DNA of 64,000 bases, taken from NCBI GenBank assembly GCA_963662465.1, contig OY759599.1, positions 6,784,001-6,848,000 of the forward strand. The letters are read 5' to 3'. The stretch's first letter is position 1, and the number at the start of each line of letters is the position of its first letter. The translations under genes and the position numbers were made by a program. The stretch comes from Desulfatiglandales bacterium (GTDB taxonomy: Bacteria > Desulfobacterota > DSM-4660 > Desulfatiglandales > Desulfatiglandaceae). Below, piece by piece: positions 5,630 through 57,702 of the stretch. The notes below the pieces were generated by a model that was given only the letters and a program-made list of their open reading frames with translations, was not told the origin of the DNA and did no database searches.

Positions 5630-5631
5630 CA

Positions 5632-6753: not shown

Positions 6754-6909
6754 CTAAATATTTACCTCCGTTAGAGTTTGTTTTGATTTTGTCAAAATAC
6801 TCCTGATTAAACCTTTCACTTATCTGCTGATTTCTAACGCTTTAGTCCCTCGTCTTCTAGGCGCATTTTTTTTATTCCTCACCTCCTTCCTTAATGTCAT
6901 CGAGGACCA

Positions 6910-8449: not shown

Positions 8450-8510
8450 TGATATTTCCCTTTATTACTAGTAATTTACGACGTTAGTTCCCCCGCTGTC
8501 CAGCGGGTCT

Positions 8511-8650
8511 GTCCAACCATTGATTATCAGGTCATTTTGCCCTGATAATAGGCCAATCCCTTTATTATCAAGGCATTTCCGCTTTGATATTGAATTATCA
8601 GGCAATTTTGCCTTGATATTGATGTTAAATCCTGTTATCAAGGCAAAACT
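8511..8650 (-). other. attI region of integron 1 (core GTTGGAC at 8517-8511) with upstream palindromic repeats
   Basis: The first cassette starts at this GTT with no attC upstream; lies 214 bp before the divergent intI. Confidence 0.75.
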
Positions 8651-29284: not shown

Positions 29285-29692
29285 CTATGATCTCCTGTCG
29301 CTGATTTTTTTTTAACCGCTTGCCCTTTTCATTTACATCTTCTGAGGTTGGCTATTGCAAATCCTATTTTAAGAACCGTTTAAAGTCAAACCACTTTTTC
29401 AATTGACTAAGGAACCTCAGTAATTCTATCAATCATTCAGCGCAATGATAATGCAGAGAGAAGTATTGCATTTTCTGGGAGCTATAGCGCTCAGATAAAC
29501 TGGTACAGGTCTGCTCAGATAAATTGATACACCAATTTTTTTTGGATTTCCCTACCTCTAAAGATAAAAACCCTTTACAGAAAAAGATACCCCTCGTAAT
29601 ACCCTATAATTTTGAGACCAATCAAAAAGAAAGAGGTATCACGAGGGTATGCCCAATTACATCAGTGACATAAGTGAGCAACTGGCTTTTTT

Positions 29693-30244
29693 ATAATAGA
29701 AATCCAAGGCCATTTTCAATTTATTTCTGGCTGGTACCGGGATGGAGAGGTCCGTGGTCTTGTTGCTCGCTATTATTTTGTTGTTCGCTCGGTTCTCAAG
29801 GAGAAACCCCACCTTAAAAACTGCCTGACTCGTTGCAAGCACTGCGGCATCTTTTTTATCACCCATCCCCGGAATGCCGGCCGAAATAATCTTGGTTGCC
29901 CCTTTGGCTGCCGGGAAGCTCACCGCCGAAAAAAATCCACGGAGAGAAGTACGGAGTATTACCGTAATAAAGAAGGCAAGGAAAAGAAAAAGGCCTTAAA
30001 CGAGAATCGCGGCAAAAAGGACAGCCCCCCGAAAGAAAAACAGGCGGAAACAATAGATGATGAACGTGAAGTGGTTGATGGCATTGTTCATCATGTTCGG
30101 ATGGTTACGAGCTTGATTGAAGGTCGTAATGTAAGCCTGGATGAAATTTATCGCATGCTGAACAATCCGATGAGACAACACAGCATCGACTCTGCGGAAA
30201 AATCGTTTTATGGTGGCCCTGGCTCTCGAAAAACTCCCCCGTGA
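29693..30244 (+). CDS. Cys-rich basic protein of E1; open frame has no standard start codon in its 5' part
   Basis: IIEIQGHFQFISGWY...CLTRCKHCGIFF...GCPFGCREAHRRKKS; similar to 49633-50049. Confidence 0.65.
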   Translation: MIEIQGHFQFISGWYRDGEVRGLVARYYFVVRSVLKEKPHLKNCLTRCKHCGIFFITHPRNAGRNNLGCPFGCREAHRRKKSTERSTEYYRNKEGKEKKKALNENRGKKDSPPKEKQAETIDDEREVVDGIVHHVRMVTSLIEGRNVSLDEIYRMLNNPMRQHSIDSAEKSFYGGPGSRKTPP

Positions 30245-30253
30245 GGAAGCAAA

Positions 30254-31150
30254 ATGGTCGATCAGATAGAAATTTCCAGTTTTGATTTACGATATGAGGA
30301 TTGCCGTTTGAAATCAGCAGGGACGGAAAGAGCCCTTTTGACCTCTGTGTCGGAAAACGGTATCCGGGATCCGCTCCAAGGGGTGGACATTGAAGACCAC
30401 AAAATTTTGCTCGATGGCTTCAAAAGATACCGGTGCGCAAAGAAATTGCATATCGAGATTGTGCCTTATCGGTCGATGGGGCGCGATGAGGCGAGTGGCA
30501 TCATTGATCTGATCCGGTTATCAAACACAAAATCCCTTAACATTCTGGAGCAGGCCCGTTTAATCGATGAACTGAAGCGAGGTCACCAGATGAGTCATTC
30601 AGATATCGCCGGACTGCTTGAAAAAAGCAAATCCTGGGTCAGCATGCGTTGCGGCATTATGGGTGAGATGAGTGAAACCGTGAAGAAAGAAGTTTTTGCC
30701 GGAAAATTTCCGGTCTATTCATTTATGTATACTCTGCGGGGGTTCATACGTATGAACACCGTTAAAAAAAGTGAAATTGATGAATTTGTTCGGTCCGTGT
30801 CAGGCAAAAAGCTGAGCATACGGGATATTGATCTGTTGGCAAATGGCTATTTCAAGGGTTCGGAGGAATTCCGGGAACAAATCAGAACCGGCAATCTTTC
30901 CTGGGGACTTGAGCGATTAAAACATCATAGCGCAATAAGCGATGGTCTGAGTAAGCGGGAAAAAACCCATTTGAAAACCCTCGAAACCATCTTGAGATAC
31001 ATACAGCGATTTATGGCGCAACAAAATGTTTCCTCCATGAGCAACGCATTTGCAGCCCAGGCCAACATGTTGTCGGGCGATATTATACAACTTTTTGATG
31101 CTTTTAAAATAGCAATGGAAGCCTTTCATGATACCACCGAACAAACGTAA
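30254..31150 (+). CDS. ParB/Srx-like N-domain + HTH protein
   Basis: SVSENGIRDPL, LLDGFKRYRCA, LEQARLI, IAGLLEKSKSWVS. Confidence 0.85.
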   Translation: MVDQIEISSFDLRYEDCRLKSAGTERALLTSVSENGIRDPLQGVDIEDHKILLDGFKRYRCAKKLHIEIVPYRSMGRDEASGIIDLIRLSNTKSLNILEQARLIDELKRGHQMSHSDIAGLLEKSKSWVSMRCGIMGEMSETVKKEVFAGKFPVYSFMYTLRGFIRMNTVKKSEIDEFVRSVSGKKLSIRDIDLLANGYFKGSEEFREQIRTGNLSWGLERLKHHSAISDGLSKREKTHLKTLETILRYIQRFMAQQNVSSMSNAFAAQANMLSGDIIQLFDAFKIAMEAFHDTTEQT

Positions 31151-32612
31151 AGCGATTTTCCTGCTGCATCAGGAGGGCATGGGCGTACGGGAGATCGCTC
31201 GCAGCATACACATCAGTCCCACCACCGTAATGGAAATTATCGGCCAAAAGGGCGAGATGCCTGAAATCCTACGTAAAGATAAAATCAAGATTGATTCGGC
31301 GCTTTTGGCAAATCTTTATGAAACATGTCAGGGCCGTGCGCAAAGAGTGTATGAAAAACTGACTGAAGAAGAAGGGATTGATGTTGCCTATTCAACCTTG
31401 ACTCGAATGCTCCGGGAACAGGGTTTGAGCCATAAAAAATCCGACCGGTGTCAACAGGTTCCGGACGTGCCCGGAGCTGAGATGCAGCATGACACGTCGC
31501 CTTATCGTATAAAACTGGGCAAAGAAATAGTGTTGGTCCAAGGAAGTCTTTTATATTTTCGGTATTGCAAAATTCGCTATCTGAAATTCTATCGTTCATT
31601 CAACCGGTTCCAAATGAAATGCTTTTTTCATGAAGCCCTTATGTACTGGCAATACGCGGCAGCGAACTGCATCATCGATAATACGAATCTGGCCCGTTTA
31701 CGGGGCACCGGCAAAGATGCCGTCATCGTTCCTGAAATGGAACGGTTCGCCAAACAGTACAGTTTCAAATTTGTATGCCATGAAATAGGGCATGCAAACC
31801 GAAAAGCAGGCAATGAGCGGGGTTTTTATACAGTGGAAACCAACTTTTTTCCAGGCCGTTCTTTTGAAAACCTTGAAGACATGAATCACCAGTCTTACAT
31901 ATGGGCGACTGATCGATCGGCCAACAGGCCCACCGGAAAGACGCGGCTGATCCCCTCCGTGGCTTTTGAATCTGAAAAACCATATCTCAGAAAAATGCCG
32001 CCATATGTCGAACCGCCCTACCTTGTTCATAAAAGAAAGATCGATCAGTACGGCTACGCCGCGGTTAATGGGAATTACTATTGGATTCCGGGAACGCGAC
32101 GTCATGACGTCAAGGTCCTGCAATATGCCGATTATTTAGATATTTATCACCAAAGAAAACTCTTGGGACGTTATGTTTTGCCGCCTGACGGCGTCAGGAA
32201 TGACGTCATCACTCCCGAGGGGGTAACAAAACCTTCTCACAAACCCTCGCAACGAAAAAAGCCAACGGCGCGGGAAGAAAACATTCTGCGATCAGATAAG
32301 GCCATTAATGATTATTTGAATTTCGCTTTACCCAAAAGTGGTAAGGCCAGGCATCACTTCATCCGAGCGCTTTTCAGCCTATATCGAAAAACCGCTCCTA
32401 CGGTTTTTATAAAAACGGTACAACGAGCCTTGAAATATCGCATTAAGGACATCAAAGTCATTGAAAACATAGTTGTTTTGATTTTAAGAGACGCTAGTAT
32501 CGAATTGGGGACACCTGAAATTGAACCGGATTTCACGAAAAGGGATGCCTATATCGAGGGCTGTTTTACCGATGAGCCGGATCTTTCCATTTATGAGGAT
32601 GAAAATGAATGA
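31128..32612 (+). CDS. istA: IS21 family transposase
   Basis: HTH, PGAEMQHD, IIDN, NRKAGNER. Confidence 0.9.
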   Translation: MIPPNKRKAIFLLHQEGMGVREIARSIHISPTTVMEIIGQKGEMPEILRKDKIKIDSALLANLYETCQGRAQRVYEKLTEEEGIDVAYSTLTRMLREQGLSHKKSDRCQQVPDVPGAEMQHDTSPYRIKLGKEIVLVQGSLLYFRYCKIRYLKFYRSFNRFQMKCFFHEALMYWQYAAANCIIDNTNLARLRGTGKDAVIVPEMERFAKQYSFKFVCHEIGHANRKAGNERGFYTVETNFFPGRSFENLEDMNHQSYIWATDRSANRPTGKTRLIPSVAFESEKPYLRKMPPYVEPPYLVHKRKIDQYGYAAVNGNYYWIPGTRRHDVKVLQYADYLDIYHQRKLLGRYVLPPDGVRNDVITPEGVTKPSHKPSQRKKPTAREENILRSDKAINDYLNFALPKSGKARHHFIRALFSLYRKTAPTVFIKTVQRALKYRIKDIKVIENIVVLILRDASIELGTPEIEPDFTKRDAYIEGCFTDEPDLSIYEDENE

Positions 32613-33351
32613 TGAGTTGATAAAGATGCTGAAATACCTTCGGCTCAATGTGTTGATTGAAAACTGGGATCGGTATCTCAAAATCGGCGCAAAAGGGGAT
32701 TATTCCCATGCGCGACTGTTGGAATATGTTGTTTCCGAGCAATATCAAATTAAAAAGGAAAACGCCCGCAAGATGAGAGTCAAACGAGCCGGTATTCCAG
32801 AAAAATTTGTTTTGGAGACCTTTCCTTTCAAGCGCCAGCCTAATCTCAATAAAAAGAGAATCGAATCCATATACGACGGTTTTGATTACATGACCAAATC
32901 CCGCAATATCATCTTCATTGGGCCGACGGGCACGGGAAAAAGCGGGCTGGCCACGGCGTTTCTGATCCACGCTATCAACCAGGGCTACAACGGGCTGTTT
33001 ATCACTTTCCCTGAACTGGTGGAACGTCTTTACCAATCGATGGCGGATAATACTCAGGCAAAGACCATCAAGAAGCTGTTATCCTATGATTGTTTGCTGA
33101 TTGATGAGCTTGGTTATATTCAAATAGAATCGGTTCAAGTGGGTCTATTTTTTAATCTAATGCAAAAAAGACATAAAAACAAAACGACCCTCATTACATC
33201 CAACCTCGGATTCGAAAAATGGAATTCCTTTCTTAAGAACAAGCATCTCACAGCCGCCCTGATCGATCGACTGACTGAAAGCAGTCATATCATCAATATG
33301 AAAAACTGCATAAGCTTAAGGCAGAGGCTTGATGAGGTTCCGGAGACATGA
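32605..33351 (+). CDS. istB: IS21 helper ATPase
   Basis: GPTGTGKS, LIDELGY, ITSN, ALIDRL. Confidence 0.93.
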   Translation: MNDELIKMLKYLRLNVLIENWDRYLKIGAKGDYSHARLLEYVVSEQYQIKKENARKMRVKRAGIPEKFVLETFPFKRQPNLNKKRIESIYDGFDYMTKSRNIIFIGPTGTGKSGLATAFLIHAINQGYNGLFITFPELVERLYQSMADNTQAKTIKKLLSYDCLLIDELGYIQIESVQVGLFFNLMQKRHKNKTTLITSNLGFEKWNSFLKNKHLTAALIDRLTESSHIINMKNCISLRQRLDEVPET

Positions 33352-33842
33352 CAAAACTTTTTTCGGCAAAGGAGCTTTACAGCGTGAGAAATGACATCCC
33401 GATTTCCGGTCTGATTGAAAACGTGCTGAATATACCGGCTCGCACAACTGAAGGGGTTTTCAGATTTCTTTGTCCTGTATGCGGGGAATTTAACACGGCG
33501 GTTAATCCAAAAACCAATCTGGCCAGATGTTTCTACTGTAAAAAAAACTTCAACACCATTGATCTGGTGATGATTGTCAAAAAGGCAAATTTTGTAGAAG
33601 CCGTCCGCTTTCTGAAAGCACACAAAAATAGATGTCAAAGTCATTGTGTTTCCAAAAAATCGGAAGATCACACTCAATCTCCCCAGCATATTGCCGACAT
33701 TGTAAAATCAATCATGCCCGCCAAACCGGATTCTGACCATCCAGAATCCATTGAAAGCATATCGAAGCGGGTTTTATGCATCGAGAAGATGCTTGAGCAA
33801 ATGACCCATCAAATGGGAATTATAGTAAAAACAATCACATAA
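33348..33842 (+). CDS. CHC2 (DnaG-type) zinc-finger protein
   Basis: FLCPVC...NLARCFYCKKNFNTIDLVM...FVEAV. Confidence 0.8.
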   Translation: MTKLFSAKELYSVRNDIPISGLIENVLNIPARTTEGVFRFLCPVCGEFNTAVNPKTNLARCFYCKKNFNTIDLVMIVKKANFVEAVRFLKAHKNRCQSHCVSKKSEDHTQSPQHIADIVKSIMPAKPDSDHPESIESISKRVLCIEKMLEQMTHQMGIIVKTIT

Positions 33843-34257
33843 CTCATTTCCTGGAATTTCATGCGAAAATAGGGTGTTCTGTTTTGATAGTCGTGTAACG
33901 CTAATCAAATTTTGGAGGTGGAAATGCGAGGCGGAAAGCGTGCTGGAGCCGGTCGAAAAAAGAAGCCGGATCACTTGAGACGTGAGTTGGTGACAATTCG
34001 ACTACCGAGGTGGATGATTACACAGCTTAAAAACAATGGTGAAATTGGCTATTTGATTGAGGATCTACTGGCAAAAAAGGGTTCCCTGAATCCACCCCGG
34101 GCGGCCACCCAAAATCCCCCACCTGTGGCCACTTGAAAATCCCCCACCTAAAGAGGTTCAAAATGTAGATTTTTGATCTTCGGCTCAATTCACAAAATGG
34201 TGACAGGACGTTATACCATCTCCCAATGCAATTTAATTGAATTGGGAGGAAGAAAGG

Positions 34258-36942
34258 ATGAACGTTTTGAAGCCGGACAAGAAATCTACCATCATTACCC
34301 TACTTAAAAATGGCGTTGGTCAGCGTGAAGTACATCGTAAGACCAATATTGACAGGAAAACGATCCGAAAATACGCAAAAGAAAGTGGCTTTTTACCCGA
34401 AGATTCCGACTTAAATTCAAGATCCCCCACCCTGGCCACCGGGGCTGATTGCATCATCAGTGAAAATCCCCCACCCCGGCCACCGGTAAACAGCACATTC
34501 AAGGGAGAAAAACGGGCGATTCCACTCCATGCCAGATCAGCATGTGAGCCTCACCGAGAATGGATTGAAAAGCAGGTGAAGCTCGGGAGGAATGCCGTAG
34601 CGATTTACCAAGATTTGGTCGAGCGATTTGCCTTTACCCACAAATACAACAGCGTAAAGCGGTTTGTAAGGGGACTGAGAAAAGAGGACCCCAAGCAATT
34701 CGATCGATTGGAGTTTTTACCAGGGGAAGAGGCTCAGGTAGACTATGGCACGGGAGCCAAAACGCTTCATTCGACAGGGAAATACCGTAAAACTCGTCTC
34801 TTTATAATGACGTTGAAATACTCCAGGCGCTCATTCCGGAAAGTAGTTTGGCAATCAAGCAAAGAAACATGGGCAAAACTTCATGAGGAGTCATTTCGAT
34901 ATTTCGGAGGTTGCCCCCAATATGTGGTTCTGGACAATTTGAAAGAGGGCGTCATCAAACCGGATCTTTACGAACCTGAATTGAACACCGTCTATGCGGC
35001 CATGCTGGAGCATTACGGGGTTGTTGCAGATCCGGCAAGAGTTAGAGACCCAAACCGGAAAGGGACTGTTGAAAATGCCGTACAGCATACCCAAGACACA
35101 GCTTTAAAAGGTCGCACATTTGAATCGATTGAACGACAGAATGAATGGCTTATGCACTGGGAGGAACAATGGGCTGCTCAGCGGATACACGGGAGAACCA
35201 AGCGACAGGTTGAAGAAATGTTTCAAGAAGAAAAACCGTACCTTAAACAACTTCCCTTAACTGCATTCAGCTATTTCAGCCAAGAAATCCGTACGGTCTG
35301 GGATGACGGCGCCATTCAGGTGGGGAAATCCTATTATTCAGCCTTGCCGGCGCCCCTTTATACAAAGGTTATTGTCAGGATTTATGACAGAGAGATTGAG
35401 ATTATCAATCCTGTAACAATGGAGATTTTCCGCAGGCACGCCAAGAACAGCAGGCCGGGATCTGTCAATATACCGCCGGAAGATAGGATTTTTAATCCTT
35501 CACGTCAAACAACGTATCTCTTTGCCAAAGCAGAGAGCATTGGTCCCGCAACTTTAAAATTATGCAAGGTCTTGTTTGAGGAAGAAGGCAGAACCGGTCA
35601 AAGACGAATACAGGGGATTGTCAACCTGGTCCGACATTATGAGGCCCGTTACGTGGAACAGGCCTGCATCAAAGCCAATAATGTGGGGCTGCGCAATTAC
35701 AAATCCATCCGCAACCTTGTCAAAACGTTAGCCGAAAAAAACCAGGAAGAAAAGGATTCTGAGGGGCTGATTCAGGAACATAAATTAATACGCCCTCCGG
35801 AAGATTATGCTGCATTCTGGGAGCAGCACGCCGCACAGACACCGGTTTCGGAGGAAGGAGCAAACCGTTTTGTCATGCCCAAAGAGCAACTACCCGCAGT
35901 TTGGAAAAATGCAAGCTGGGAGAGAGTGATTGATGTTTTTGGCCTGGAAGTTGATGGAAACCGCCGCTGTAAGGCCAACGAGACATGGATCAAATCGCCT
36001 TTTACAGGCGAAAAAACTGCTTCGCTGCATTTGAACCTGACGGAGAATATCTTCAAGGATTTCAGCAGTGGCCTGGGGGCGAAAGTCGGTGTACTCAATT
36101 TCTGCCAGGATCTTTTAGCGCTGCGAGGCCAGGCAATGAATTGCTATGAAGTTGCCTCCTGGATGGTGGAAAATGGAATTTCAAATTTGGATATACGTTC
36201 ACGCGAGGTTAAAAACCATGTTCCTGAACTCAAAAAACCGAAAGAAAACAAACCGATTCAAGTGGATTTAAGGCGTTTTGTACAGCCGCAACATCCAGAA
36301 TTAAAACATCGACAGGTTTCAGAGGCGACATGTCGCTATCTGGGATGTGGTTTTCTCCCGGAAAGGCCGAATGGAAACAAACAGTCACCTCTCAATGGCC
36401 GGTTGGTGTTTCAAGTGCGGGGAATGTCCGGCGCTATACTGACACATGTCGGTCGTGCATTGACACTGCAGCAAGAAAAAACGAATGGGAAATACTGGAG
36501 CTTTCCGTTCTTCAAAAAACTGGAAATATACAACCAGGACAAACTGTTATCAGATGCTTCAGCAAAGGATCAAGTTCAGCGGCTTGGCTTGGTGCTGGTA
36601 GAAGGTTTTTTTGATGTGGCAGTTTTGGTCGAATCGGGTTGTTTGAACGTCGGAGCACTGATGGGGTCGCACATGACCGAACAACAGGCAGCCCGAATAA
36701 AGTTAATCAGCTCACACATTGAGATTCCCAAAATTACCGTTTTTTTGGACAGGGATGAAGCTGGGAGGATTGGCGCACAAAAAGCAGTTACTGTGCTGCG
36801 GAAAAATGGGTTTTCAGCCGAGGCCTTTGACTGGAACCAGACCCTTGGGTCGTCATTTGTGAAAATCCCAATGGCCGTTATGGATCCAGGCGATATGTCG
36901 TTAAGGCAGCTAAAGTGGTTGAGAAAAAAGGGAAACATTTGA
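34258..36942 (+). CDS. istA: IstA transposase fused to a DnaG-like primase (degenerate ZBD + TOPRIM)
   Basis: PGEEAQVDY, DNLK, RKGTVE, followed by SPF..EKTASL..FKDFSSG, GRLVFQ, VGRAL, VEGFFD, FLDRDEAG, DPGD. Confidence 0.88.
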   Translation: MNVLKPDKKSTIITLLKNGVGQREVHRKTNIDRKTIRKYAKESGFLPEDSDLNSRSPTLATGADCIISENPPPRPPVNSTFKGEKRAIPLHARSACEPHREWIEKQVKLGRNAVAIYQDLVERFAFTHKYNSVKRFVRGLRKEDPKQFDRLEFLPGEEAQVDYGTGAKTLHSTGKYRKTRLFIMTLKYSRRSFRKVVWQSSKETWAKLHEESFRYFGGCPQYVVLDNLKEGVIKPDLYEPELNTVYAAMLEHYGVVADPARVRDPNRKGTVENAVQHTQDTALKGRTFESIERQNEWLMHWEEQWAAQRIHGRTKRQVEEMFQEEKPYLKQLPLTAFSYFSQEIRTVWDDGAIQVGKSYYSALPAPLYTKVIVRIYDREIEIINPVTMEIFRRHAKNSRPGSVNIPPEDRIFNPSRQTTYLFAKAESIGPATLKLCKVLFEEEGRTGQRRIQGIVNLVRHYEARYVEQACIKANNVGLRNYKSIRNLVKTLAEKNQEEKDSEGLIQEHKLIRPPEDYAAFWEQHAAQTPVSEEGANRFVMPKEQLPAVWKNASWERVIDVFGLEVDGNRRCKANETWIKSPFTGEKTASLHLNLTENIFKDFSSGLGAKVGVLNFCQDLLALRGQAMNCYEVASWMVENGISNLDIRSREVKNHVPELKKPKENKPIQVDLRRFVQPQHPELKHRQVSEATCRYLGCGFLPERPNGNKQSPLNGRLVFQVRGMSGAILTHVGRALTLQQEKTNGKYWSFPFFKKLEIYNQDKLLSDASAKDQVQRLGLVLVEGFFDVAVLVESGCLNVGALMGSHMTEQQAARIKLISSHIEIPKITVFLDRDEAGRIGAQKAVTVLRKNGFSAEAFDWNQTLGSSFVKIPMAVMDPGDMSLRQLKWLRKKGNI

Positions 36943-36999
36943 TTTCCATCGCCACGTTCTCGGTGGCGCGGAAATTTGTTTAACCTAAACGGCCATCCG

Positions 37000-37475
37000 A
37001 AGGAATCGGGCTTATGTATAAGCGAATATGGTCGGACTTTTTGAATCTCGTTACACGATAATCATAGGGCTTGATTGTTTTGGAGGTGAAAATGGGAGGC
37101 GGAAAACGTATGGGAGCCAGTCGAAAAAAGAAATCAGATCATTTGAGACGTGAACTGCTGACAATTCGATTGCCGAAGTGGATGATTTCACAGCTCAAAA
37201 ACAAATGTGAAATTGGCTATTTGATCGAGGATCAATTAAGGAATCGGGCTTATGTATAGGCGAATATGGTCGGACTTTTTGAATCTCGTTACACGATAAT
37301 CATAGGGCTTGATTGTTTTGGAGGTGAAAATGCGAGGCGGAAAACGTACGGGAGCCGGTCGAAAAAAGAAATCAGATCATTTGAGACGTGAACTGCTGAC
37401 AATTCGATTGCCGAAGTGGATGATTTCACAGCTCAAAAACAAATGTGAAATTGGCTATTTGATCGAGGATCAATT
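37000..37475 (+). repeat. 238 bp tandem duplication covering the operator and small gene
   Basis: Units start AAGGAATCGGGCTTATGTATA at 37000 and 37238. Confidence 0.95.
37092..37259 (+). pseudogene. 3'-truncated copy of the small regulator gene
   Basis: MGGGKRMGASRKKK...; lacks the PDDY tail. Confidence 0.7.
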
Positions 37476-37527
37476 GAGGAAGATAGATTTTTTGGATATC
37501 CCGGATGACTATGACATTGATAACTGA
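37330..37527 (+). CDS. Small basic DNA-binding-like protein (RGGKRxGAGRK + RHH-like)
   Basis: MRGGKRTGAGRKKKSDHLRRELLTIRLPKWMISQLK. Confidence 0.75.
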   Translation: MRGGKRTGAGRKKKSDHLRRELLTIRLPKWMISQLKNKCEIGYLIEDQLRKIDFLDIPDDYDIDN

Positions 37528-37550
37528 AATCGAGAAAGGAGAAACTGAAT

Positions 37551-38324
37551 ATGCCGATGTCAATGCAGGAAATAGAGAAAAGTCTAGGAACGCTACGTTT
37601 AAGCGGTATGCGAGCAACATTAGAAACCCGAGTGATACAGGCAAATCAAGGAGAATCTTCTTTCCTGGAAGTCTTTTCATGCCTGCTTCAGGATGAGTTA
37701 GATTACAGGCGGTCGTGCCTGATAGAACGTAGATTTAATGCTTCCGGTCTTCGTGAGAGAAAAACATTGACTGAGTTTGATTGGGGCTTTAATCCAAGAC
37801 TTCCAAAAAAGGAAATTTTTGAACTGGTGACCATCAAATTTATACACAACGGTGAAGACGCACTCCTGATCGGTTCTCCCGGGACTGGGAAAAGCCATAT
37901 CGTTAAAACAATTGCTCATGCTGCAACACAGGCATGCCATCAGGTTGTTTATCGTGAGGCCCATACTTTCTTTGAAGATGTCTTCGAAGCAGCCCAAACA
38001 GGGAAGACAAAAAAAATAACAAAGCTTTTTTCAGAAGCAGACTTGCTAATAATAGATGATCTTTTCCTGAGAAAAAGGGTCCCTGAACATGCGGCAGATG
38101 ATCTTCTTGATATCATACTGAATCGTTATTCCAAAAGAAAAAGTACACTCATAACATCAAACCGTCCGGTGGAGGACTGGGGTAAACTGCTCAGAGACAA
38201 TGCCGCATCCTCTGCGATCCTTGACAGGTTGCTCCACCGAGGCCATTTGCTCAAATTTGAAGGAAAAAGCTACAGGCTAAAGGAGGCTGCAGAAAAACTT
38301 GCCATAGGGAAGAAAAAAGAATAA
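37551..38324 (+). CDS. istB: IS21 helper ATPase
   Basis: GSPGTGKSH, LIIDD, ITSNRP, AILDRLLH, SYR. Confidence 0.95.
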   Translation: MPMSMQEIEKSLGTLRLSGMRATLETRVIQANQGESSFLEVFSCLLQDELDYRRSCLIERRFNASGLRERKTLTEFDWGFNPRLPKKEIFELVTIKFIHNGEDALLIGSPGTGKSHIVKTIAHAATQACHQVVYREAHTFFEDVFEAAQTGKTKKITKLFSEADLLIIDDLFLRKRVPEHAADDLLDIILNRYSKRKSTLITSNRPVEDWGKLLRDNAASSAILDRLLHRGHLLKFEGKSYRLKEAAEKLAIGKKKE

Positions 38325-39201
38325 AGTGTAACCGTTCTGTCGCTGAAGATCTTTCCAATGCCACGGTCAAGATCCTACATGGCCACCTTCACAGGTGGGG
38401 GATTTTGGGGTGGCCACAAGTGGGGGATTTTGAAGTGGCCATCCGGGTCCACCTGATGATTATGATTTCAATAGCTGAAATCGACGGACCCATTCATCTC
38501 TTTTCTACGATTTGATTGAAAACGCCTTCCAACCGACATCTGAAATAGCCCCAGGTTGTATCCAACACTGAAGTCCCCCACAAGTCAGCGTGTTTGTCCA
38601 TAGCTTAGCACGGCTTTTCGGATCGAACCTGTCGCAAATATCCAGGTCAAATTTCGATACGGCCTGCTGGTTTGTAGTCGTTTGCTCAGCCGTTCCGGCA
38701 TCAATCTCCTTCTCCAACTTAAGCCATTTTTCCGCTGCGGGGTAGCAGCAAAGGCGGGGTTCTATTCAATTCTTGGGGCGGGGTGAGCATAGCTGCAGGG
38801 TAGTCGTGCGAACGAACGTATCAGTTTTCATGAGCAGAAGTGTATCAGTTTATCTGAGCGCCATAGGGGAGGGCATACTCCAAGGCACGAAACAAATCTT
38901 GTAACTTAAGTGAGTAGATGTAGGTAATGGCATTTACCCGTTTGACAATATCTGACCTGTACCAAGTGTTAAGGCTTTTTATATCGATCACCCAACCAGG
39001 TTTTTTTTCATTTGGTACTACTATCCATGGATATTCATTTGGATAAATCTCAATCGCCGATTCAGCCTTTATCCATAAGATGGAAAGATACTCACGGTCA
39101 GGGCAAGTAGAATCTTTGATAAAGTCTGCGAGAAAATCTTGAAAATTTTCTTTCATATCATCACGTCTCATCTTCGCTAAGCATAAATATTTTCGCAGCC
39201 T

Positions 39202-39246
39202 CGCACGGTAGGAACGCCGGTTACCCGGCGCCCCCCGCACAGAACC
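39202..39246 (-). mobile_element. 3' remnant (half DV + DVI) of a class-E-like group II intron
   Basis: GGTTCTGTGCGGGGGGCGCCGGGTAACCGGCGTTCCTACCGTGCG, near-identical to 1796-1840. Confidence 0.85.
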
Positions 39247-39325
39247 ACTATATAATGCCCATCAAAACCAGTTTATAACTTGGGTATATTACCCATTTCA
39301 CCCAAGAACCGGTGAAGAAATTTAT

Positions 39326-39637
39326 GTGGTAGGTACCAGAAACCATCGTGGAGAAACTTGTTTTGTAACAAAGAAACCTGATGGTCGCCATGAATTGATA
39401 CCTGCGTGGATGACCAATCCAAAGTATGAAAAGATATCCCTCGGCTCAAAACCCGCTATCGAAATCAGGGCGCTTAAGAATTTATATTGCTTAATAGTGA
39501 ATAGAAAAATACCGTTTCCTCCTGATGAAGTCAATTCGAAAACAAGGAGGAAAGATGACGAAACAAAAATATCATCAACTTCGGCTTTGGGATTATTTAC
39601 CATCACCGATCGAAATTCCAAGAGAAACACGAAATAG
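39326..39637 (+). CDS. Small accessory protein of the recombinase element (Y4bD/DUF5372-like); frame is open back to the left end
   Basis: YPFHPRTG upstream in frame; IPAWMT. Confidence 0.6.
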   Translation: MVGTRNHRGETCFVTKKPDGRHELIPAWMTNPKYEKISLGSKPAIEIRALKNLYCLIVNRKIPFPPDEVNSKTRRKDDETKISSTSALGLFTITDRNSKRNTK

Positions 39638-39716
39638 ATTGATTGATTTCCTTGCAGAGCTTCTGTCAGGTTTCTGGCAAAATTCTGAGGGTAACAGAAA
39701 TAGAAAAGAGAAGTAG
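39555..39716 (+). CDS. Small hypothetical protein upstream of the recombinase
   Basis: MTKQKYHQLRLWD...LAELL; AGGAGG RBS. Confidence 0.5.
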   Translation: MTKQKYHQLRLWDYLPSPIEIPRETRNRLIDFLAELLSGFWQNSEGNRNRKEK

Positions 39717-40267: not shown

Positions 40268-40290
40268 AGAAAAGAAAGGTGGAAATGAGC

Positions 40291-49231: not shown

Positions 49232-49632
49232 TTTTAATATTCTCCTTTCACTTGAAACTGGGATTGAAAACTTCAACGCTAATCAAAACTGAACCAAGTT
49301 TGCTAATGGAAATTGAACCATTGGCTGTCACCGCCGGTGAGTACGGCCCTCAGGTATAGCGGACGATGAGGGATCCATAAGTGGCGGCAAAGGAGTCGTT
49401 GATGTAGATTTACTTTTCAATAAATTTTTATAAAATCTATTTTCTTTGGATTTGGTTTTCTTCTTCCAAGACAGAGGCTTGGTTAAGTGGAAATGCGATT
49501 TACTTTGTAGAATGGATGGTGAAGGCCCGAAGTAGCCGCTTCGGGCCTTCTTTTTTGACCACCGGATAGAGCCGGAAGCCACACACACGCCAATTTTATA
49601 TAAGTGTGTTTCCGGCCAATTGCAAGGCCGGA

Positions 49633-50049
49633 ATGATGGGAGATGTCCTTTTAAGAGTGGTTCAATGCCGATGTTGTGGTTGCTTTTTTCACGTCTGTCG
49701 GTCGTGTTGGCGTGGCCAGGCCTATTGTGGGGAACGATGTCGCAGGATACGCCAAAGACAGCTGCACCGGAAAGCTCAGGGGAAATACCGCAATTCGAAA
49801 AAAGGGAAAGAGCGCTGTCGTTTGTACGAAAAAACAAAAAAATCCAAAAAAAATGGACTGAACCCTGGTGATGATAGTTCAACACCTCAAAAAGACTGTG
49901 ATATTGAACCCAAAAAGCGGTCGGGGAACCGACCCAGCTGTCTTTTTTGCGGGTCGATCGGGGTTGTTGTGGACCATTTTCCTCGCCGTGCTTATGCAGG
50001 GAGGGTTTTTTCAGATGTAACAGGCTTTGAGAAAACCCCATATCCATGA
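49633..50049 (+). CDS. Cys-rich basic protein
   Basis: CRCC..F.VCRSC.RGQAYC..RC; C-terminal CLFCG. Confidence 0.7.
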   Translation: MMGDVLLRVVQCRCCGCFFHVCRSCWRGQAYCGERCRRIRQRQLHRKAQGKYRNSKKGKERCRLYEKTKKSKKNGLNPGDDSSTPQKDCDIEPKKRSGNRPSCLFCGSIGVVVDHFPRRAYAGRVFSDVTGFEKTPYP

Positions 50050-50061
50050 CAGGAGAAAAAA

Positions 50062-50481
50062 ATGATCAAAAAAAGAGTCCTTTTTCCCGAAAGAGTGCGT
50101 GTCATCAATGGAAGCTTCGGCTTTCTGGAGCATCGTTTTTTGAGAAACGGCTTTTGGGAGAGCCTGAATCATCATGAGCTGCTGCTCTACATTTTTCTGG
50201 TGTTGGTATCTGACAAAAACGGGCTCTCTTATTATGGTTACGACAGAATCTGCCGGATTTTAAAGGTGCATTTGGATCAATATATCGATGCCCGCGATGG
50301 CTTGTTGGACAAGGATCTGATTGGGTTTGATGGCCGTCTGTTTCAGGTTCTTTCGCTTCCCAGACGTCCTGTGATTGTGAAACAGGTAAAGGAGATCCGG
50401 CAAGGAAATTGGGTCAGTCTTGGAGAAACCATAGAGGAAATCTTTCGGGAGACTGGGTATGGAATCCATCCGAACCGTTGA
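50062..50481 (+). CDS. Putative winged-HTH protein
   Basis: LLLYIFLVLVSDKNGLSYYGYDRICRIL...ARDGLLDKDLI. Confidence 0.7.
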   Translation: MIKKRVLFPERVRVINGSFGFLEHRFLRNGFWESLNHHELLLYIFLVLVSDKNGLSYYGYDRICRILKVHLDQYIDARDGLLDKDLIGFDGRLFQVLSLPRRPVIVKQVKEIRQGNWVSLGETIEEIFRETGYGIHPNR

Positions 50482-50688
50482 TATTCATTTGCTGGAGTTG
50501 CGTTACGCTCATTGCCGGATAATGAATCACCAGGCTTTAAAGCGATTGAGGGATTCCATCGAAACTTACGGGCAGATCGTTCCGGCCCTGGCTATTGAAG
50601 AAAAAGACAAACTGATTCTGATTGATGGCTACCTGCGTGTTCGAGCGCTTTGTGCTTGTGGAAAGGACCGGATATGTGTCCAATTCTC

Positions 50689-52486
50689 CAGCAATTCCCG
50701 GTCAAGAATTTACTCACAGAGTTTGAAAAACATATTTCAAAAACAAACCCTGAGATCAGATCCTTTTCAGAAAAATTGTATTAAATCCACTATTACCTCC
50801 CTCGATTTCTTGCAGGTTGAGCTTCTTTGACAAGAGTAAGAGCATAAAAGCACGAGTTAGGGCAGAGATATCCATTTCCGGAATCTCCAGTTTTTTATTA
50901 ATGAGAGCATTTTTGTATGCGAACTTGGGCATGACAAATTTAACCACTGTTATATAGAATAACTGGCGCTTGAAACTTTACGCCATAATAGAGGGCTTCA
51001 TAGAGCATCCTCATCGATTTGAATTCAAAATCTCTAAACAAAGCTCTCATCCGTTCCCACAATTCCCTTTTTGAGCCGAGTTTATGCCATGCGGCTATAA
51101 ATAGAGGGCAACAAAGCTGTTGAGTTTGATCCACCAAGAATGCCAGCATCATGAGCATCGCAAAAACAACACTCAGATTCTTCTTGCCGAGCCCGTAGTT
51201 GTGTTCAAAATGATATCCTTGGTTCTTAAGAGTATTGAAGGTTTCATTTTCGATCTTCCATCTCGCACGGCCGCCTCGCATTAGCTGGTATGCATTGTCC
51301 TTTCCTATTAAAAAATCTGTCACCCAACTAAAATGTTTTGTTTTTTTCGGTGTAATTTCCCAATATTCCAGAAAGTTAACCAGCATATTCTTGTTAGAGG
51401 CATTGAGAGGTACCTGGTTAATAAATCGGAAACGATGTATTTTTTCCGGATCCTCTTTATCGACCAATTCGAATTCAGTGACGTCACCATTTATCCGCGC
51501 TTGTTCGACGTGATTAAACAAGAAATGGTGATCTCCTTTTTTAACTCCCAGAATATAATGAAAATTTTGCTTTTGTATTTCTTCAATGTGGGGTGCATTC
51601 GAACTTAACGCGTCCTCTGTTATAATGATAGGCAGATGGGGATGCTCCTCTTTTAGCTTTTGCAAGAAACGTTTCGCGGCATTACGCTCACAGTCGTTCT
51701 TGCTTTGGCCATCCTGCTTGACTATGAATTCCGGAGCAAGCGGAATGACCTCTTTGAAATCCGGATGGACAATTGCTGCCCCCAACATCTGCTGATAATA
51801 GGTTTTTTCGCCGGTTTTTTTCGATACTTTTACCAAACAACTATCAGAGGAAAGTTTCTTCGATGAGAAGAAACCCGTTCCATCCAAAGATAGAAGATAA
51901 CAACCTTCGAAAAATACCATACGTTCAAGCACCTTTCCCCTTTGCAGTTCCCAGAAGATATTCCTATACGGTTTCCGAAGTTCTTCTGCGAGCACTTCAT
52001 CAAGAATGGTGCGCATCGTACTGTCACATGGGATCTTTCCAATATGGTATATGTTCCCAAGATTACTATCGGTTTTTCTTCTTTCATCAAAGGCAAGCAA
52101 CGATGGCTCCTTGAGCGAAAACATTGCAAACCCGGACATCAAGGCATCCGCAATAGTAATATCGGGATCCTCACGGCAGTCAGAGACTTCAGAAAAATCT
52201 TTATGCAGACGCTTGAAAATTGCATCTGCATTAAGATGCTTGCGAACTCCAATCTTGCCTCTCTCTTTTCTTCCTTTTTGGCTTCTGATTCCCATAGGCA
52301 GTAATCATCGGCCAAGTTGATCTGAAAGTCCAGCTTTTTCTGAGAATTGCCAAAAAAATTCCTGTTTTATTTTAAAAATTGGAGAAAAAAGCCTTTTCAG
52401 GCTATTCATTCAACGTAAAGCTTTACGAAAAGGAAATGCCAAAAGGTACTGTCCTAGCGCCTTTAGAATCTAAGCGGGAATTGCTG
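50689..52486 (-). mobile_element. 1798 bp DDE insertion sequence, copy B (inverted)
   Basis: Same IRs as copy A; 9 bp TSD CCAATTCTC. Confidence 0.95.
50940..52295 (-). CDS. DDE transposase, identical protein to 46091-47446
   Basis: ORF track translations match. Confidence 0.92.
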   Translation of the reverse strand: MGIRSQKGRKERGKIGVRKHLNADAIFKRLHKDFSEVSDCREDPDITIADALMSGFAMFSLKEPSLLAFDERRKTDSNLGNIYHIGKIPCDSTMRTILDEVLAEELRKPYRNIFWELQRGKVLERMVFFEGCYLLSLDGTGFFSSKKLSSDSCLVKVSKKTGEKTYYQQMLGAAIVHPDFKEVIPLAPEFIVKQDGQSKNDCERNAAKRFLQKLKEEHPHLPIIITEDALSSNAPHIEEIQKQNFHYILGVKKGDHHFLFNHVEQARINGDVTEFELVDKEDPEKIHRFRFINQVPLNASNKNMLVNFLEYWEITPKKTKHFSWVTDFLIGKDNAYQLMRGGRARWKIENETFNTLKNQGYHFEHNYGLGKKNLSVVFAMLMMLAFLVDQTQQLCCPLFIAAWHKLGSKRELWERMRALFRDFEFKSMRMLYEALYYGVKFQAPVILYNSG

Positions 52487-53146
52487 CCAATTCTCAAAAG
52501 AAAACGAACAAAATGCCATGTTTTCGCTTTTAACCAAGGCCAATGAACGGCAATGGGAAGTCATTGAGCAGTCTGTTTTACTTCAGGAATTACATCGGCG
52601 TTTTGGGTGCAGCCTCTCCCATATTGCAACCCGAATAGGGCGCGACAAGAGTTTTGTAAAACGGCGGCTGGACCTGGTTGAAGCCCTGCCGGAAAATATT
52701 TTGAGAACCGTGATTGCAGGCTCACTTTCAACCTGGGCTGCCAGCCGTGTCATGGCGCCGTTGGCGCGCGCCAACGGTGAAGACGCACAAAAACTGTTGG
52801 CCCACCTGGAAAAAGAACCTCTATCCACAAGGGAACTGGCCCGTTTCTACGCACATTACCAGAAAAGCAACCGGTCTGTTCGAGACCACATGCTGGAAAA
52901 TCCATCCCTTTTCATAAAAGTTCTCGAACAAAGAACCCAGTCTAAACAAGCCAAAGAAGTTCATGATGGACCGGAAGGCAAATGGTTCAAGGATATTGAA
53001 ATGGTATATGCGGTTCTCAAACGTCTGGTGAAAACCGTTTCGCATGTCCATTACCCAAAAAGCGATCAGTTGAAGAAACAAACGCTCAAAACCTGGGTGA
53101 AAAAGATAGAAAAACAAGCACTGGAACTCAAGAAAGCGACCCAATT

Positions 53147-54529
53147 ATGATCCGACAATCCAAAAAAGATGCCATTGTGGAATTGAAAAAAACCGGCATG
53201 AGTTTGCGCGACATCGCCAAAACCCTGAAGGCCGGTCGCAATACCGTCACGAAGGTTTTAGATGATCATGACGAAGAGGCGGTACCCCAAAGGAACTCCC
53301 GGTATGAAGAACATGTCCCGTTGATCCGCGAGCTTTTCAAGGAATGTAAAGGAAATGCCGTGCGAGTAGCCGAGGAACTGGAAAGCCGCCAACAGATCAA
53401 AATCCCTTATCAGAGTCTGACCTGGATTATGAGAAAGTACGAGATCCGGGAACGTAAAAAAAGACGGGCGGGCCAATACCATTTTAAACCCGGTCAGGAG
53501 ATGCAGCATGATACGTCACCCCATCTGGTTGTCATTAATGGGAAAAAAATGTCGACCCAGTGCGCGTCCCTGACCCTGGCCTTTTGCCGAAGGATTTTTA
53601 TTCAGTATTACCCCTGTTTTACCCGGTTTGAGTGCAAGGTTTTCCTAAAAAAAGCATTCGAGTTTATGGACGGGGTGTGTTCCCGGTGCATGGTTGACAA
53701 CACCAATGTTATTGTGGCCGGCGGCACCGGGCCTGATGCATTGATTGCGCCTGAAATGAAATACTTCGGCGATATGTATGGAACCCGGTTTGAGGCCCAT
53801 GCTGTAGGAGACGCCAATCGAAGTGCCCGTGTGGAAAGGCCTTTTCATTTTGTGGAAAACAATTTTCTTCCCGGTAGAACATTTGTTAGCTGGCAGGATT
53901 TGAACCGGCAGGCAATCGACTGGTGCCGGAATACAAGCGATAAAAAGTTTAAACGGGCTTTAGGGATGACGCCGGATGAGGCCTATGTCATTGAAAAGCC
54001 ATATCTCATTGATTTACCGGCATACCAGCCGCCAGTCTATGTGGCAGAACACAGGGTAGCCGATGTTCAGGGATATGTGCACTTGGACACCAACCGCTAT
54101 TCAGTCCCTGAAGCGCTGATTGGGAACTCCCTGGAAGTACAGAAACATTGGCTCAAGGTCATCGTTTACGACAAAAACACAAAAGTGGCGGAACATGACC
54201 GCATACTGGATAAACGCAACACCCGAACAACCCTGCCCGGTCACCATGTTCCCATTCGAAGAAAAAAAGATCCCCGAATCCCTTCAAAAGAAGAACAGCT
54301 GTTGACGGGAGAGGATGCCATCCTGGATGAGTATGTGGCTGAACTGAAGAAAAGAAGTCACGGTCGCGGTGTGGTCAAGTTACGTCGGTTGCTTCATCTG
54401 AAACGCACTTATCCCGGGGAACCTTTTTTGAAAGCCATAACACAGGCGCTTAAATATGGACTTTTTGATTTGTCGCGTCTGGAAAACATTATTCTCGATT
54501 ATATCGCGGGAGACTTTTTTGATCTATGA
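53147..54529 (+). CDS. istA: IS21 family transposase
   Basis: PGQEMQHD, MVDN, NRSARVER, NRYSVP. Confidence 0.92.
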   Translation: MIRQSKKDAIVELKKTGMSLRDIAKTLKAGRNTVTKVLDDHDEEAVPQRNSRYEEHVPLIRELFKECKGNAVRVAEELESRQQIKIPYQSLTWIMRKYEIRERKKRRAGQYHFKPGQEMQHDTSPHLVVINGKKMSTQCASLTLAFCRRIFIQYYPCFTRFECKVFLKKAFEFMDGVCSRCMVDNTNVIVAGGTGPDALIAPEMKYFGDMYGTRFEAHAVGDANRSARVERPFHFVENNFLPGRTFVSWQDLNRQAIDWCRNTSDKKFKRALGMTPDEAYVIEKPYLIDLPAYQPPVYVAEHRVADVQGYVHLDTNRYSVPEALIGNSLEVQKHWLKVIVYDKNTKVAEHDRILDKRNTRTTLPGHHVPIRRKKDPRIPSKEEQLLTGEDAILDEYVAELKKRSHGRGVVKLRRLLHLKRTYPGEPFLKAITQALKYGLFDLSRLENIILDYIAGDFFDL

Positions 54530-55245
54530 AAAAGAAAATTGAACAGTTACTCATTGATTTGAAGTTTAAAGGCATGCTGAAGGCTCTCGAAGAACAGTTG
54601 GCTTCGGCTGAAAAGAACGGTTTTTCCATTCACGAGGTCATCTACAATCTCCTGGCTGAGGAATTACGTTTCCGGCAGGAGCGCAGCATGATCTATCGGG
54701 TCCAGATTGCAAAGCTTCCATGGGAATGGACCCTCAACTCCTTTCCGTTTGATCTTCAGCCGGGAATACAGAAGAGCCGGATCATGACGTTGTCCGGCCT
54801 TGACTTTATCAGCCGAAGAGAAAACATCGTGTTCCATGGAAAAACCGGCGTCGGCAAAACGGGATTGGCCGTGGGGATCCTTCGTCAAGCCATTATTGCC
54901 GGGTACCGGGGGCGTTTTTATAATGTTCAGGATTTGCTGGATCAGCTCTATGCGTCTTTGGCAGATCGGTCCACCCCGAAACTCCTCAATGCCCTTTGCA
55001 GATATGACCTGCTTCTGCTCGATGAACTGGGATACCTGACCCTCAAAAAAGAGCAGATGAACGCCTTTTTTAAACTCATGAAAGATCGCTATGAAGCCGG
55101 TCGGTCCACAATTATTACGACCAATCTTCAACCTGAACAATGGTATTCGCTGCTTGAACCAAAGGACATGGTCGATGCCTTGCTGGATCGTCTCAACCAT
55201 CGCTGCATCAACATTCATATTGATGGTCCTTCCCTCAGAAAATGA
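54526..55245 (+). CDS. istB: IS21 helper ATPase
   Basis: GKTGVGKT, LDELGY, ITTN, ALLDRL. Confidence 0.94.
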   Translation: MKKKIEQLLIDLKFKGMLKALEEQLASAEKNGFSIHEVIYNLLAEELRFRQERSMIYRVQIAKLPWEWTLNSFPFDLQPGIQKSRIMTLSGLDFISRRENIVFHGKTGVGKTGLAVGILRQAIIAGYRGRFYNVQDLLDQLYASLADRSTPKLLNALCRYDLLLLDELGYLTLKKEQMNAFFKLMKDRYEAGRSTIITTNLQPEQWYSLLEPKDMVDALLDRLNHRCINIHIDGPSLRK

Positions 55246-55343
55246 GATGTTCGCCAAAGGGCCGGTTTTGAGGTCTGAATATCACCGGTCTGTTTGAATC
55301 TCGTTACACGAATATCAGAAATTACCTTGTCTTGGAGCTTGAA

Positions 55344-55541
55344 ATGAGAGGTGGAAAACGGGTAGGCGCCGGCCGAAGAAAGAAACCGGAACATTTGAGA
55401 CGTGAACTGCTCACCATTCGTCTCCCCAAATGGATGATTCTACAGCTGAAAAAAAACGGGGAAATTGGATATTTGATTGAGGATCAATTGGCGAAGGGAG
55501 GCCTCCTGAATTTACCGGACGACTATGACATAGACAAATAG
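55344..55541 (+). CDS. Small RGGKRxGAGR regulator-like protein
   Basis: MRGGKRVGAGRRKKPEHLRRELLTIRLPKW...LPDDY. Confidence 0.75.
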   Translation: MRGGKRVGAGRRKKPEHLRRELLTIRLPKWMILQLKKNGEIGYLIEDQLAKGGLLNLPDDYDIDK

Positions 55542-56004
55542 TTCCTCAATAAGCATTGCCCTTAACCGAAAAATCTAATCCCCTCTTCTCTGCCATCACC
55601 ATATTGATGGTATCCTCATCACTGATTCTTCAACCAGAACGCTACGTGTCTCACCAGCATTTTTAAAATACCATCTGATATACTCTTTCATGCAACCTCT
55701 AACAAATTTACAAGAAAACCCTTCTAAAAGGAAAAGACCAGTGCGCAATATCTGGTTCCGTTTGGAGTAGCAAAACTGGTTCCATTTTGGTTAGCGCCCA
55801 AGATTGAAAACCGATTCTTCTATTAAAAATATCTTGAAGAGTACTTGAAAACAACATTTCTCGTAGTGGTGGCACCTCCTTTCGAATCTTATTGTACGGG
55901 GCTAACAAGTTCGTGTAAAAATTGCATTGGCTCGTAGCATTATCGGTTATTTGTCTACGGTTTCCATAACCAGCGCTATTTTTTTTGGAATCTTACCTCC
56001 GCAC

Positions 56005-57606: not shown

Positions 57607-57702
57607 GGTACTTCCTCCTAATTCGAATTGTCGAGTAGCCAGGGGATGTCACCATCCCCCAGCCCTCTAAGAACCGTGCGTGCGCCGTTAAACGCACACG
57701 GC

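Follow-up and report, generated by a model that had tools for sequence, protein, structure and literature searches.

Insertion sequences (IS) of the IS21 family are, in the accessible text of two accounts (PMC10122671, PMC11208146), elements with two open reading frames (ORFs) and a terminal CA that act through tandem substrates and encode IstB, a protein kin to DnaC. As far as these texts go, IS21 proper (IS21, IS5376) combines a DDE transposase, IstA, with the AAA+ helper IstB, two-repeat ends and a short target-site duplication (TSD). The stretch analyzed here (the window; 64,000 nucleotides of contig OY759599.1, positions 6,784,001 to 6,848,000, Desulfatiglandales bacterium) contains three elements, E1, E2 and E3, that share this combination. 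However, against the two ORFs and CA-3' ends of IS21 proper, E1 and E2 carry 5–6 genes and end in AG-3', and E3 ends in GG-3'. The extra genes, which encode a ParB-like protein, zinc and winged-helix proteins and primase-type modules, are very probably working parts of the elements. We tentatively put forward a reading in which a ParB clamp controls and licenses its own copy of the element, and a primase, as an optional addition, serves the second strand of the circle that is copied out.

E1, E2 and E3 are all IstA/IstB elements bounded by inverted repeats and target duplications, and comprise six ORFs, six ORFs, and three ORFs including one fusion, respectively. The host genome is a single contig of 8.16 Mb, to which all copy counts refer. 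E1 spans positions 29482-38866 between 49-bp inverted repeats that are 84% complementary. Its left end (29482..29530, + strand) starts with CTAT, contains two repeats ~25 bp apart and is kept in sequence throughout the E1 clade; the right end lies at 38818..38866 on the - strand, and the TSD GGGAG (unstranded) at 29477..29481 and 38867-38871. There are two E1 copies, the second of 5028 bp with the TSD CCTTTGC and without the inserted E3. E3 (34096..38447, + strand; 4352 bp; ends CCCGG..CCGGG; TSD TCCAC at 34091-34095 and 38448-38452) sits inside E1, where it splits the small regulator ORF, and the E3-free joint (34090>38448) is present in the contigs of three of four runs. Three full E3 copies occur, two with a 5-bp TSD and the third with a match at 6 of 7 positions. 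E2 (49271..55802, + strand) has the ends CTT..AAG and the TSD ATTGAAAA. It is present in 25 paired copies, with a further left end and a further right end as orphans, and measures 4725 bp in most copies other than that of the window; the 19 copies of 4725 bp differ by 0-6 nucleotides from one reference copy. Nineteen of the 25 paired copies have a TSD of 5–8 bp, no target-site consensus is evident among these 19 insertion sites, and the empty site of one copy was found in another sample (contigs of one of four runs). The parB gene of the window copy is interrupted by an unrelated 1798-bp DDE element (50689..52486, - strand) with a 9-bp TSD, a second copy of which lies at 45900-47697. All three elements are recently mobile.

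TSDs of 5–8 bp thus accompany 2/2 E1, 19/25 E2 and 2/3 E3 copies; the range for the IS21 family is 4–8 bp. The flanking TSDs fix the termini as CT..AG in E1 and E2 and CC..GG in E3, all C..G and not TG..CA, and the C..G termini are kept in relatives. Of four named controls including ISEc12, the three with resolved ends (IS5376, ISPepr5 and ISAs29) begin with TG. At all six ends of E1, E2 and E3 the two repeats are 24–25 bp apart. End mapping and copy comparison therefore bear out the gene orders, inverted repeats and TSDs claimed in the original prediction, which was made from the window alone, as well as the overlap of parB with istA (23 nucleotides in E1, 4 in E2).

The E2 copies also bear on a quite unlikely alternative, Mu-like replicative strand transfer giving cointegrates, with the primase priming the lagging strand at the strand-transfer fork. 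In the accessible text of PMC10122671 and PMC11208146, IstA is similar to MuA, and IstB to DnaC/I as a paralogue; moreover, six of the 25 E2 copies have no TSD. Two inverted E2 copies, at 5347739-5352463 and 6062590-6067428 of the host contig, share a 7-bp duplication crosswise, pointing to either an inversion between E2 copies or a replicative event. However, these two copies are of E2, which has no primase, and recombination between copies explains their exchanged flanks equally well, none of the three elements carries a resolvase gene, and 19 of the 25 E2 copies are simple insertions.

The E1 IstA transposase (31128..32612, + strand) aligns D122, D184 and E231 with the triad motifs of IS5376, and is followed by IstB (32599..33351, + strand). 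E2 IstA and IstB are encoded at 53147..54529 and 54526..55245, and E3 IstB at 37551..38324, all on the + strand. The IstB proteins of E1, E2 and E3 match PF01695 (7e-49, 3.5e-59 and 7e-51) and NF038214 (195, 225 and 212 bits; cut-off 200), whereas only E3 IstA exceeds the NF033546 cut-off of 160 bits (261.6, versus 102.8 for E1 and 129.4 for E2). In an IstA tree of 45 rows, 14 E1-type and 5 E2-type, which carries a long-branch warning on its deep joins, E1-type and E2-type proteins unite with a support of 100 in the SH-like approximate likelihood ratio test. E3 and its relatives cluster with an IS1631-like element, and the named IS21 members stand apart. E2 has no primase module and E3 no ParB. 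E1 and E2 are accordingly assigned, from the aligned proteins, to a ParB clade and E3 to a separate lineage, two lineages in all. E1 and E2 are called here an IS21-related sister lineage because they depart from the two-ORF organization, the CA ends and the family cut-off while working like IS21. E3 is classified as an IS1631-like element carrying a fusion. The IS1631-like element of the Bradyrhizobium sp. LCT2 plasmid (NZ_CP034431) encodes an IstA 59% identical to the E3 core, in the same clade, and has CCCC..GGGG ends and a 5-bp TSD; C-ends are thus already known from a named subgroup of IS21. Unlike E3, it has no fused primase and no small regulator.

The non-random presence of the accessory genes was assessed in relatives: for E1 the best 80 of 193 loci found with the E1 IstA alone (52–86% identity, many phyla), for E2 the 16 loci fetched out of 17 matches outside the host genome, and for E3 the 31 loci of an IstA-only search. 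Viral contigs gave no match to the E2 IstA, and a representative search with the E3 IstA core returned mostly fragments, unfit for counting fusions. A parB gene lies directly upstream of istA in 77/80 E1 relatives, two of the three misses being cut by contig ends and the third (L067) being genuine, and in 14/16 E2 loci, both misses being cut (14/14 with room). The gene behind istB is primase-type in 60 of the 63 informative E1 relatives, namely those with istB present and room for a gene. The zinc ORF is found in 62/80 E1 relatives, about 7 of the 18 misses having room upstream. Among the E2 loci, 12 of 16 encode the winged-helix protein, 9 the zinc protein and none a primase module. Pairwise identity follows that of IstA for ParB (rho 0.77), the Toprim gene found behind istB in many E1 relatives (rho 0.81) and the zinc ORF (rho 0.52), the pairs not being independent.

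Every accessory gene measured is under purifying selection, as judged by the ratio of nonsynonymous to synonymous substitution rates (dN/dS). This ratio is 0.13-0.22 for the E3 primase part in 12 of 13 relatives (one was saturated), 0.10-0.26 for all E1 genes in comparison with locus L031, 0.21-0.31 for the E2 accessory genes and 0.21-0.38 for the Toprim gene in eight pairs. The dS values of accessory genes are mostly like those of istA; the exception is the E2 zinc ORF (1.7-1.8 versus 0.47), which suggests exchange. It is therefore extremely improbable that the extra genes are chance cargo of ordinary IS21 elements. Linkage across phyla at 52–86% IstA identity, purifying selection and a conserved palindrome described below already contradict this explanation for ParB, the zinc ORF and the primase slot, although it is true for the small regulator, which is patchy and shared with a serine-recombinase element.

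Parts of the original prediction did not survive this comparison. It had proposed one distinct class whose ParB, zinc-finger and primase modules would take part in transposition, target capture or maintenance of a circular intermediate; the linkage of the accessories stands (77/80 for ParB, 60/63 for the primase slot, selection and the palindrome), but a single class for E1, E2 and E3 is ruled out by the separate IstA clades, subject to the long-branch warning on deep joins, and by profile comparisons in which the primase modules are not close kin, in addition to the missing primase in E2 and the missing ParB in E3. The IstA phylogeny and neighborhood mapping that it had suggested likewise returned a divided answer, a non-random ParB and primase slot together with 13 close E3 relatives that are plain istA-istB. 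The small regulator, also counted as part of the class, occurs in 1/80 E1 relatives, 6/31 E3 loci and 2/16 E2 loci; with this patchy distribution it was rejected as a core gene and is a local passenger, conserved where present and also found in the serine-recombinase element.

The E1 ParB-fold protein (30254..31150, + strand) consists of a ParB/Srx domain, a helix-turn-helix domain and C-terminal helices. Its structure model has a predicted local distance difference test score (pLDDT) of 88, with ParB, Noc and KorB as best matches. E2 parB (50459..53150, + strand) is split in the window by the element at 50689-52486 and is intact, with 294 residues, in other copies. The GxxRxxR motif for binding of cytidine triphosphate (CTP) aligns with GERRFR of Spo0J, and G55, R58 and R60, like F56 and K57, are invariant in all 47 aligned ParB proteins. 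In contrast, the catalytic glutamates are replaced: the invariant Phe56 stands at Spo0J E78 and a Ser at E111 (B. subtilis numbering). In the accessible text of PMC8494293, the E78Q and E111Q mutations abolish CTP hydrolysis and widen spreading of Spo0J, and PadC, with a Phe at the catalytic Glu, binds CTP without hydrolyzing it. KorB-OB-KorA of plasmid RK2, Noc and PadC are, in the parts of the literature available, cases of a ParB fold in a non-segregation job, with a 16-bp palindromic site, as is proposed for E1 and E2. They differ from E1 and E2, where the candidate site lies within the transposon's own parB and ParA is missing: a survey of ORFs and domains found no ORF for ParA in E1, E2 or E3.

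The candidate ParB site emerged from a palindrome search over five gene sets in which no site was named beforehand and synonymous recoding served as the null. One position in parB forms at least 6 of 8 pairs in all 63 non-redundant genes (out of 71). At this position at least 7 of 8 pairs are formed in 58/63 genes versus 15.4 in the null (maximum 27), and the palindrome is perfect in 37/63 versus 3.1 (maximum 9). Two palindrome positions co-vary on both sides (C:G in 39 and T:A in 19 genes; G:C in 35 and A:T in 18), and the changes on the partner side replace one amino acid by another (Met/Ile). The palindromes of the other sets (zinc ORF 11/54, istA 23/67, Toprim 16/36, CHC2 7/14) look codon-driven. 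In E1 the parS-like 16-bp palindrome GTTCATACGTATGAAC lies at 30742..30757, and in E2 the palindrome GTTGGCGCGCGCCAAC lies at 52760..52775, both unstranded and within parB; the E2 site differs in sequence from the E1 site, and its codons match the E1 site by eye. The E2 16-mer occurs 26 times in the host genome, 25 times in E2 copies and once without a gene, with a diverged E2-type end 271 bp away. Five of 104 family genomes also contain it. The sites fetched from these (for one genome, G522, part of its 36) are all in parB, except a gene-less one with an end at a distance of 208 bp and one located where a parB remnant begins. Gene-less E2-type sites are thus found in two genomes, 271 and 208 bp from an E2-type end; no complete gene-less miniature with two ends was found. 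The canonical parS pattern has a single match in the host genome (position 5786765), compared with the 26 copies of the E2 palindrome. We consider the palindrome a likely docking site for ParB, which would load itself within its own gene.

This site could also be read differently. ParB and its site might form a KorB-type transcriptional autoregulator and nothing more, with the primase-type genes as helpers shared by many mobile elements that act outside transposition, for example in the host replisome or on a co-resident plasmid. The distances suit this somewhat unlikely alternative: KorB, in the accessible text of PMC11790492, acts together with a partner that locks the clamp and silences promoters at distances of up to 1.5 kb, and the palindrome lies ~1.3 kb from the E1 left end and ~370 bp before istA. 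On the other hand, the palindrome is kept near ends without its gene in the two genomes mentioned, and the selected in-frame fusion to IstA in E3 puts a primase at the transpososome. A scan of E1 for promoters and terminators gave no signal above shuffle level, and an Rfam search gave no match inside E1, E2 or E3.

Three kinds of primase-type module accompany these transposases. In E1 the gene behind istB (33348..33842, + strand) encodes a CHC2 primase-type zinc finger (PF01807, 1.1e-7) with a variable C-terminal tail; the zinc finger is present, and the Toprim polymerase motifs were not found in this protein. Among the 80 E1 relatives, 44 have a DUF3991-Toprim gene in this slot, 16 a lone CHC2 finger and none both; of the other 20, 14 end too early, 3 are without istB, and 3 lack such a gene despite sufficient room. 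The DUF3991-Toprim proteins conserve LCESAIDA and CGFDxD motifs, and their acidic motifs are intact. Since 44/80 loci carry the Toprim gene, many elements of the ParB clade unite ParB, the palindrome and a predicted primase with intact acidic motifs. On the IstA tree, Toprim and CHC2 genes were exchanged at least five times, even between near-identical IstAs (loci L046 and L048). That CHC2 is a cut-down Toprim gene was ruled out, as BLAST detects no similarity between them and only a 26-column motif is common to both; closer CHC2 homologs (58–62%) adjoin other elements.

In E3 the primase is part of the transposase itself (34264..36942, + strand; NF033546 1e-77, TIGR01391 5.5e-21). The C-terminal 360 residues, encoded at about 35860-36939, have a DnaG-like fold, with the zinc-binding and polymerase domains of Aquifex primase as the best match (E 3.7e-13) and nothing C-terminal of the Toprim core. 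E248, D252, D297 and D299 are invariant in 37/37 aligned sequences, and the strict Glu and DxD motifs are each present in 114 of the best 120 of 549 homologs. These homologs came from a length-restricted search, which favors fusions, and 95 of the best 120 have at least 840 residues. The 31 loci of the IstA-only search comprise 15 fused IstAs (14 at 81–95% identity, one at 63%), 13 plain istA-istB pairs (65–72%) and 3 fragments; the unfused IstAs stop shortly after the motif where the primase starts. A phylum-wide search with the E3 primase returned mostly host DnaG; of 400 other genomes, one had a fused copy and one had three stand-alone homologs. The latter (L111-L113, genome G279, contig C2; 32–35% identity) lie away from istA/istB, and one faces a convergent coiled-coil ORF. 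The profiles of the E3 fusion, Toprim and CHC2 modules are not significantly alike except for the 26-column motif; because the modules are not close kin, they appear to have been recruited separately three times. DnaG primases and the DUF3991-Toprim proteins share the fold of the zinc-binding domain, the polymerase/Toprim core and the intact Glu and DxD; here, the primase is fused to, or encoded behind, a transposase, and the zinc ligands of E3 are lost, unlike those of DnaG-type enzymes. The IS629 excision enhancer IEE is, in the accessible text of PMC9943667, another polymerase-type helper in IS movement. However, in that text it is a separate gene promoting excision by end joining and apparently not borne by the element, unlike the modules of E1 and E3.

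The remaining accessory ORFs lie upstream of parB or near the right ends. The E1 zinc ORF (29678..30244, + strand) encodes a Cys4 zinc-ribbon/basic-helix protein without a Pfam or NCBIfam family and runs from stop to stop with no ATG, GTG or TTG start. In all 17 loci compared (window positions 29678-29740 and L031-L099) none of these start codons occurs within 25 codons before the conserved WYR motif, and 14/17 have an in-frame stop there; a conserved TTT TTT ATA/GTA run hints at a frameshift or at initiation from a non-standard codon. E2 encodes a Cys-rich zinc ORF (49606..50049, + strand), a winged-helix ORF (50062..50481, + strand; HTH_36, below the cut-off) and a small regulator (55344..55541, + strand). 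The E1 small regulator, possibly of the ribbon-helix-helix type, is split by E3 into a 5' part at 33924..34095 and a 3' part at 38448-38478 (+ strand), and is intact in the second E1 copy. The regulator region of E3 is a 238-bp tandem duplication (37000..37475, + strand) with a cut copy at 37092-37259 and a whole copy that starts there, at 37330-37527; the 238-bp unit is single-copy in run X8.

In the mechanism that we tentatively propose, ParB would bind the 16-bp site and close on CTP. With the catalytic Glu replaced by Phe or Tyr, a PadC-like change, ParB would hydrolyze little CTP and would thus remain bound and slide along the copy that encodes it. Near the left end, the clamp would be halted in a KorA-like manner by the zinc or winged-helix protein, which would time both the reading of the operon and the use of the ends. 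IstA would then nick a G-3' end and join it near the opposite end, replication would displace one strand, and priming of that strand by the element primase would yield a double-stranded circle. In E1, the lone CHC2 finger may instead direct or restrain the host primase. Finally, IstB would capture the target, giving the 5–8 bp duplications. A bolder version is unlikely: pairing or licensing of the ends would require, in cis, a ParB clamp that is dead for hydrolysis and has loaded at a centromere-like site within the element, and the element primase and DnaC-like IstB would start synthesis without the host restart primosome, in a system both widespread and undescribed.

Several observations weigh against the tentative mechanism. 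Both the copy-out route and the host restart proteins that it requires are borrowed from other IS families (IS911-type). No circle or end-to-end junction was seen in the loci or in eight sets of run contigs, although contigs drop rare forms, so that absence is not implied. Locus L067 has E1-type ends and istA without parB, palindrome or istB. The strict pattern gave no site in five of eight E2-type loci (L183, L184, L186, L155 and L158), and the gene-less sites have neither a second end nor a TSD, so that their movement is only conjectural. With respect to the primase, the zinc-binding domain of E3 has Ser or Asp instead of Cys at the CHC2 positions, and E2, the most amplified element with 25 copies, has no module. 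The 13 unfused E3 relatives nest among fused ones on the IstA tree; with the unfused IstAs ending near the primase start, the primase was therefore gained or lost as a module. Finally, CHC2 and winged-helix homologs also head tyrosine-recombinase trios in the host genome and are thus not specific to IstA/IstB chemistry. Both these trios and the lack of a primase in E2 and 13 E3 relatives also favor the view of the primase-type genes as helpers outside transposition. With E2 and 13 close E3 relatives lacking one, the primase is an optional helper.

The circle that the tentative mechanism invokes could also persist as a mini-replicon, in which ParB and its site would partition, the winged-helix protein initiate, IstB load the helicase and the primase prime. 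This is very unlikely. The gene set does resemble a replication-partition module, and the contig depth of E2 is ~30–35 times that of its flanks, compared with 25–27 genome copies, but depth is a poor measure of copy number and contig depth ratios were not used as such. No element has a ParA, the winged-helix protein and the primase never occur together in one element of the window, no circle was seen, and the catalytic glutamates are lost, where hydrolysis mutants, in the accessible text of PMC8494293, impair ParABS segregation in B. subtilis without Smc.

Homologs of the accessory proteins were also encountered elsewhere in the host contig. CHC2 or winged-helix homologs lie directly before RIT-like tyrosine-recombinase runs (L117-L119; 7051320-7053646, 285378-288273 and 3489873-3493973), and the winged-helix homologs there are preceded by a Cys-rich ORF. 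Another locus (L189, 393234-401205) contains a zinc ORF, a CHC2 ORF split by an E2 copy, a 224-residue ORF and a transposase-like ORF of 507-521 residues without a Pfam match. In L067, one of the 80 E1 relatives (positions 4196-6544 of that locus), an unrelated Cys-rich ORF and istA alone lie between the E1-type ends. The CHC2 and winged-helix homologs at tyrosine-recombinase trios and the regulator in the serine-recombinase element imply that mobile elements share a pool from which several of the accessories derive.

From its sequence, the window resembles an array of cassettes that is densely populated by mobile elements. The large serine-recombinase element (39243-42372) contains two small ORFs and the same small regulator, has seven genome copies inserted at CAGAACC, and is cut in the window by an IS91-type gene; its flanks presumably resemble group II intron ends, and Rfam has no match there. 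A group II intron at 57630-60134 (- strand) has its reverse-transcriptase ORF in two pieces. Named by resemblance, an integron-integrase-like ORF cut by an IS (60600-61994), attC-like repeats (5548, 48525 and 56009) and repeated IS91-type units (3951-8517) are also present.

A literature search found no description of such elements; ISfinder, TnCentral, subscription reviews and supplements lay outside its reach, and an earlier mention may exist there. The accessible text of PMC12045711, 10.1101/2024.03.22.586370, PMC8649781 and PMC9943667 describes different associations of ParB or polymerases. Plasmid pHRM2a of Desulforapulum autotrophicum HRM2 (NC_012109.1, ~11.3–15.5 kb) contains an E1-type five-gene element of the CHC2 type. 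This element is 4737 bp long, has CTAT ends, is flanked by a TSD of 8 bp and includes the palindrome. Its genes are annotated as hypothetical, ParB, HTH, ATP-binding and CHC2, and not as an insertion sequence. A cultured strain thus carries an E1-type copy that went unrecognized as an IS, and further elements of this kind are probably overlooked. IS21 serves as the structural model of ATPase-controlled transposition and is regarded as a system of two genes; the relatives described here also encode a ParB, with a site that looks cognate, and primase-type modules. If the proposed mechanism is true, a ParB clamp would have a new job and a DDE transposase would use G-3' ends, and both the priming of DNA synthesis in IS transposition and the cis action of a transposon would become testable by single-gene changes in one element of 4–5 kb.

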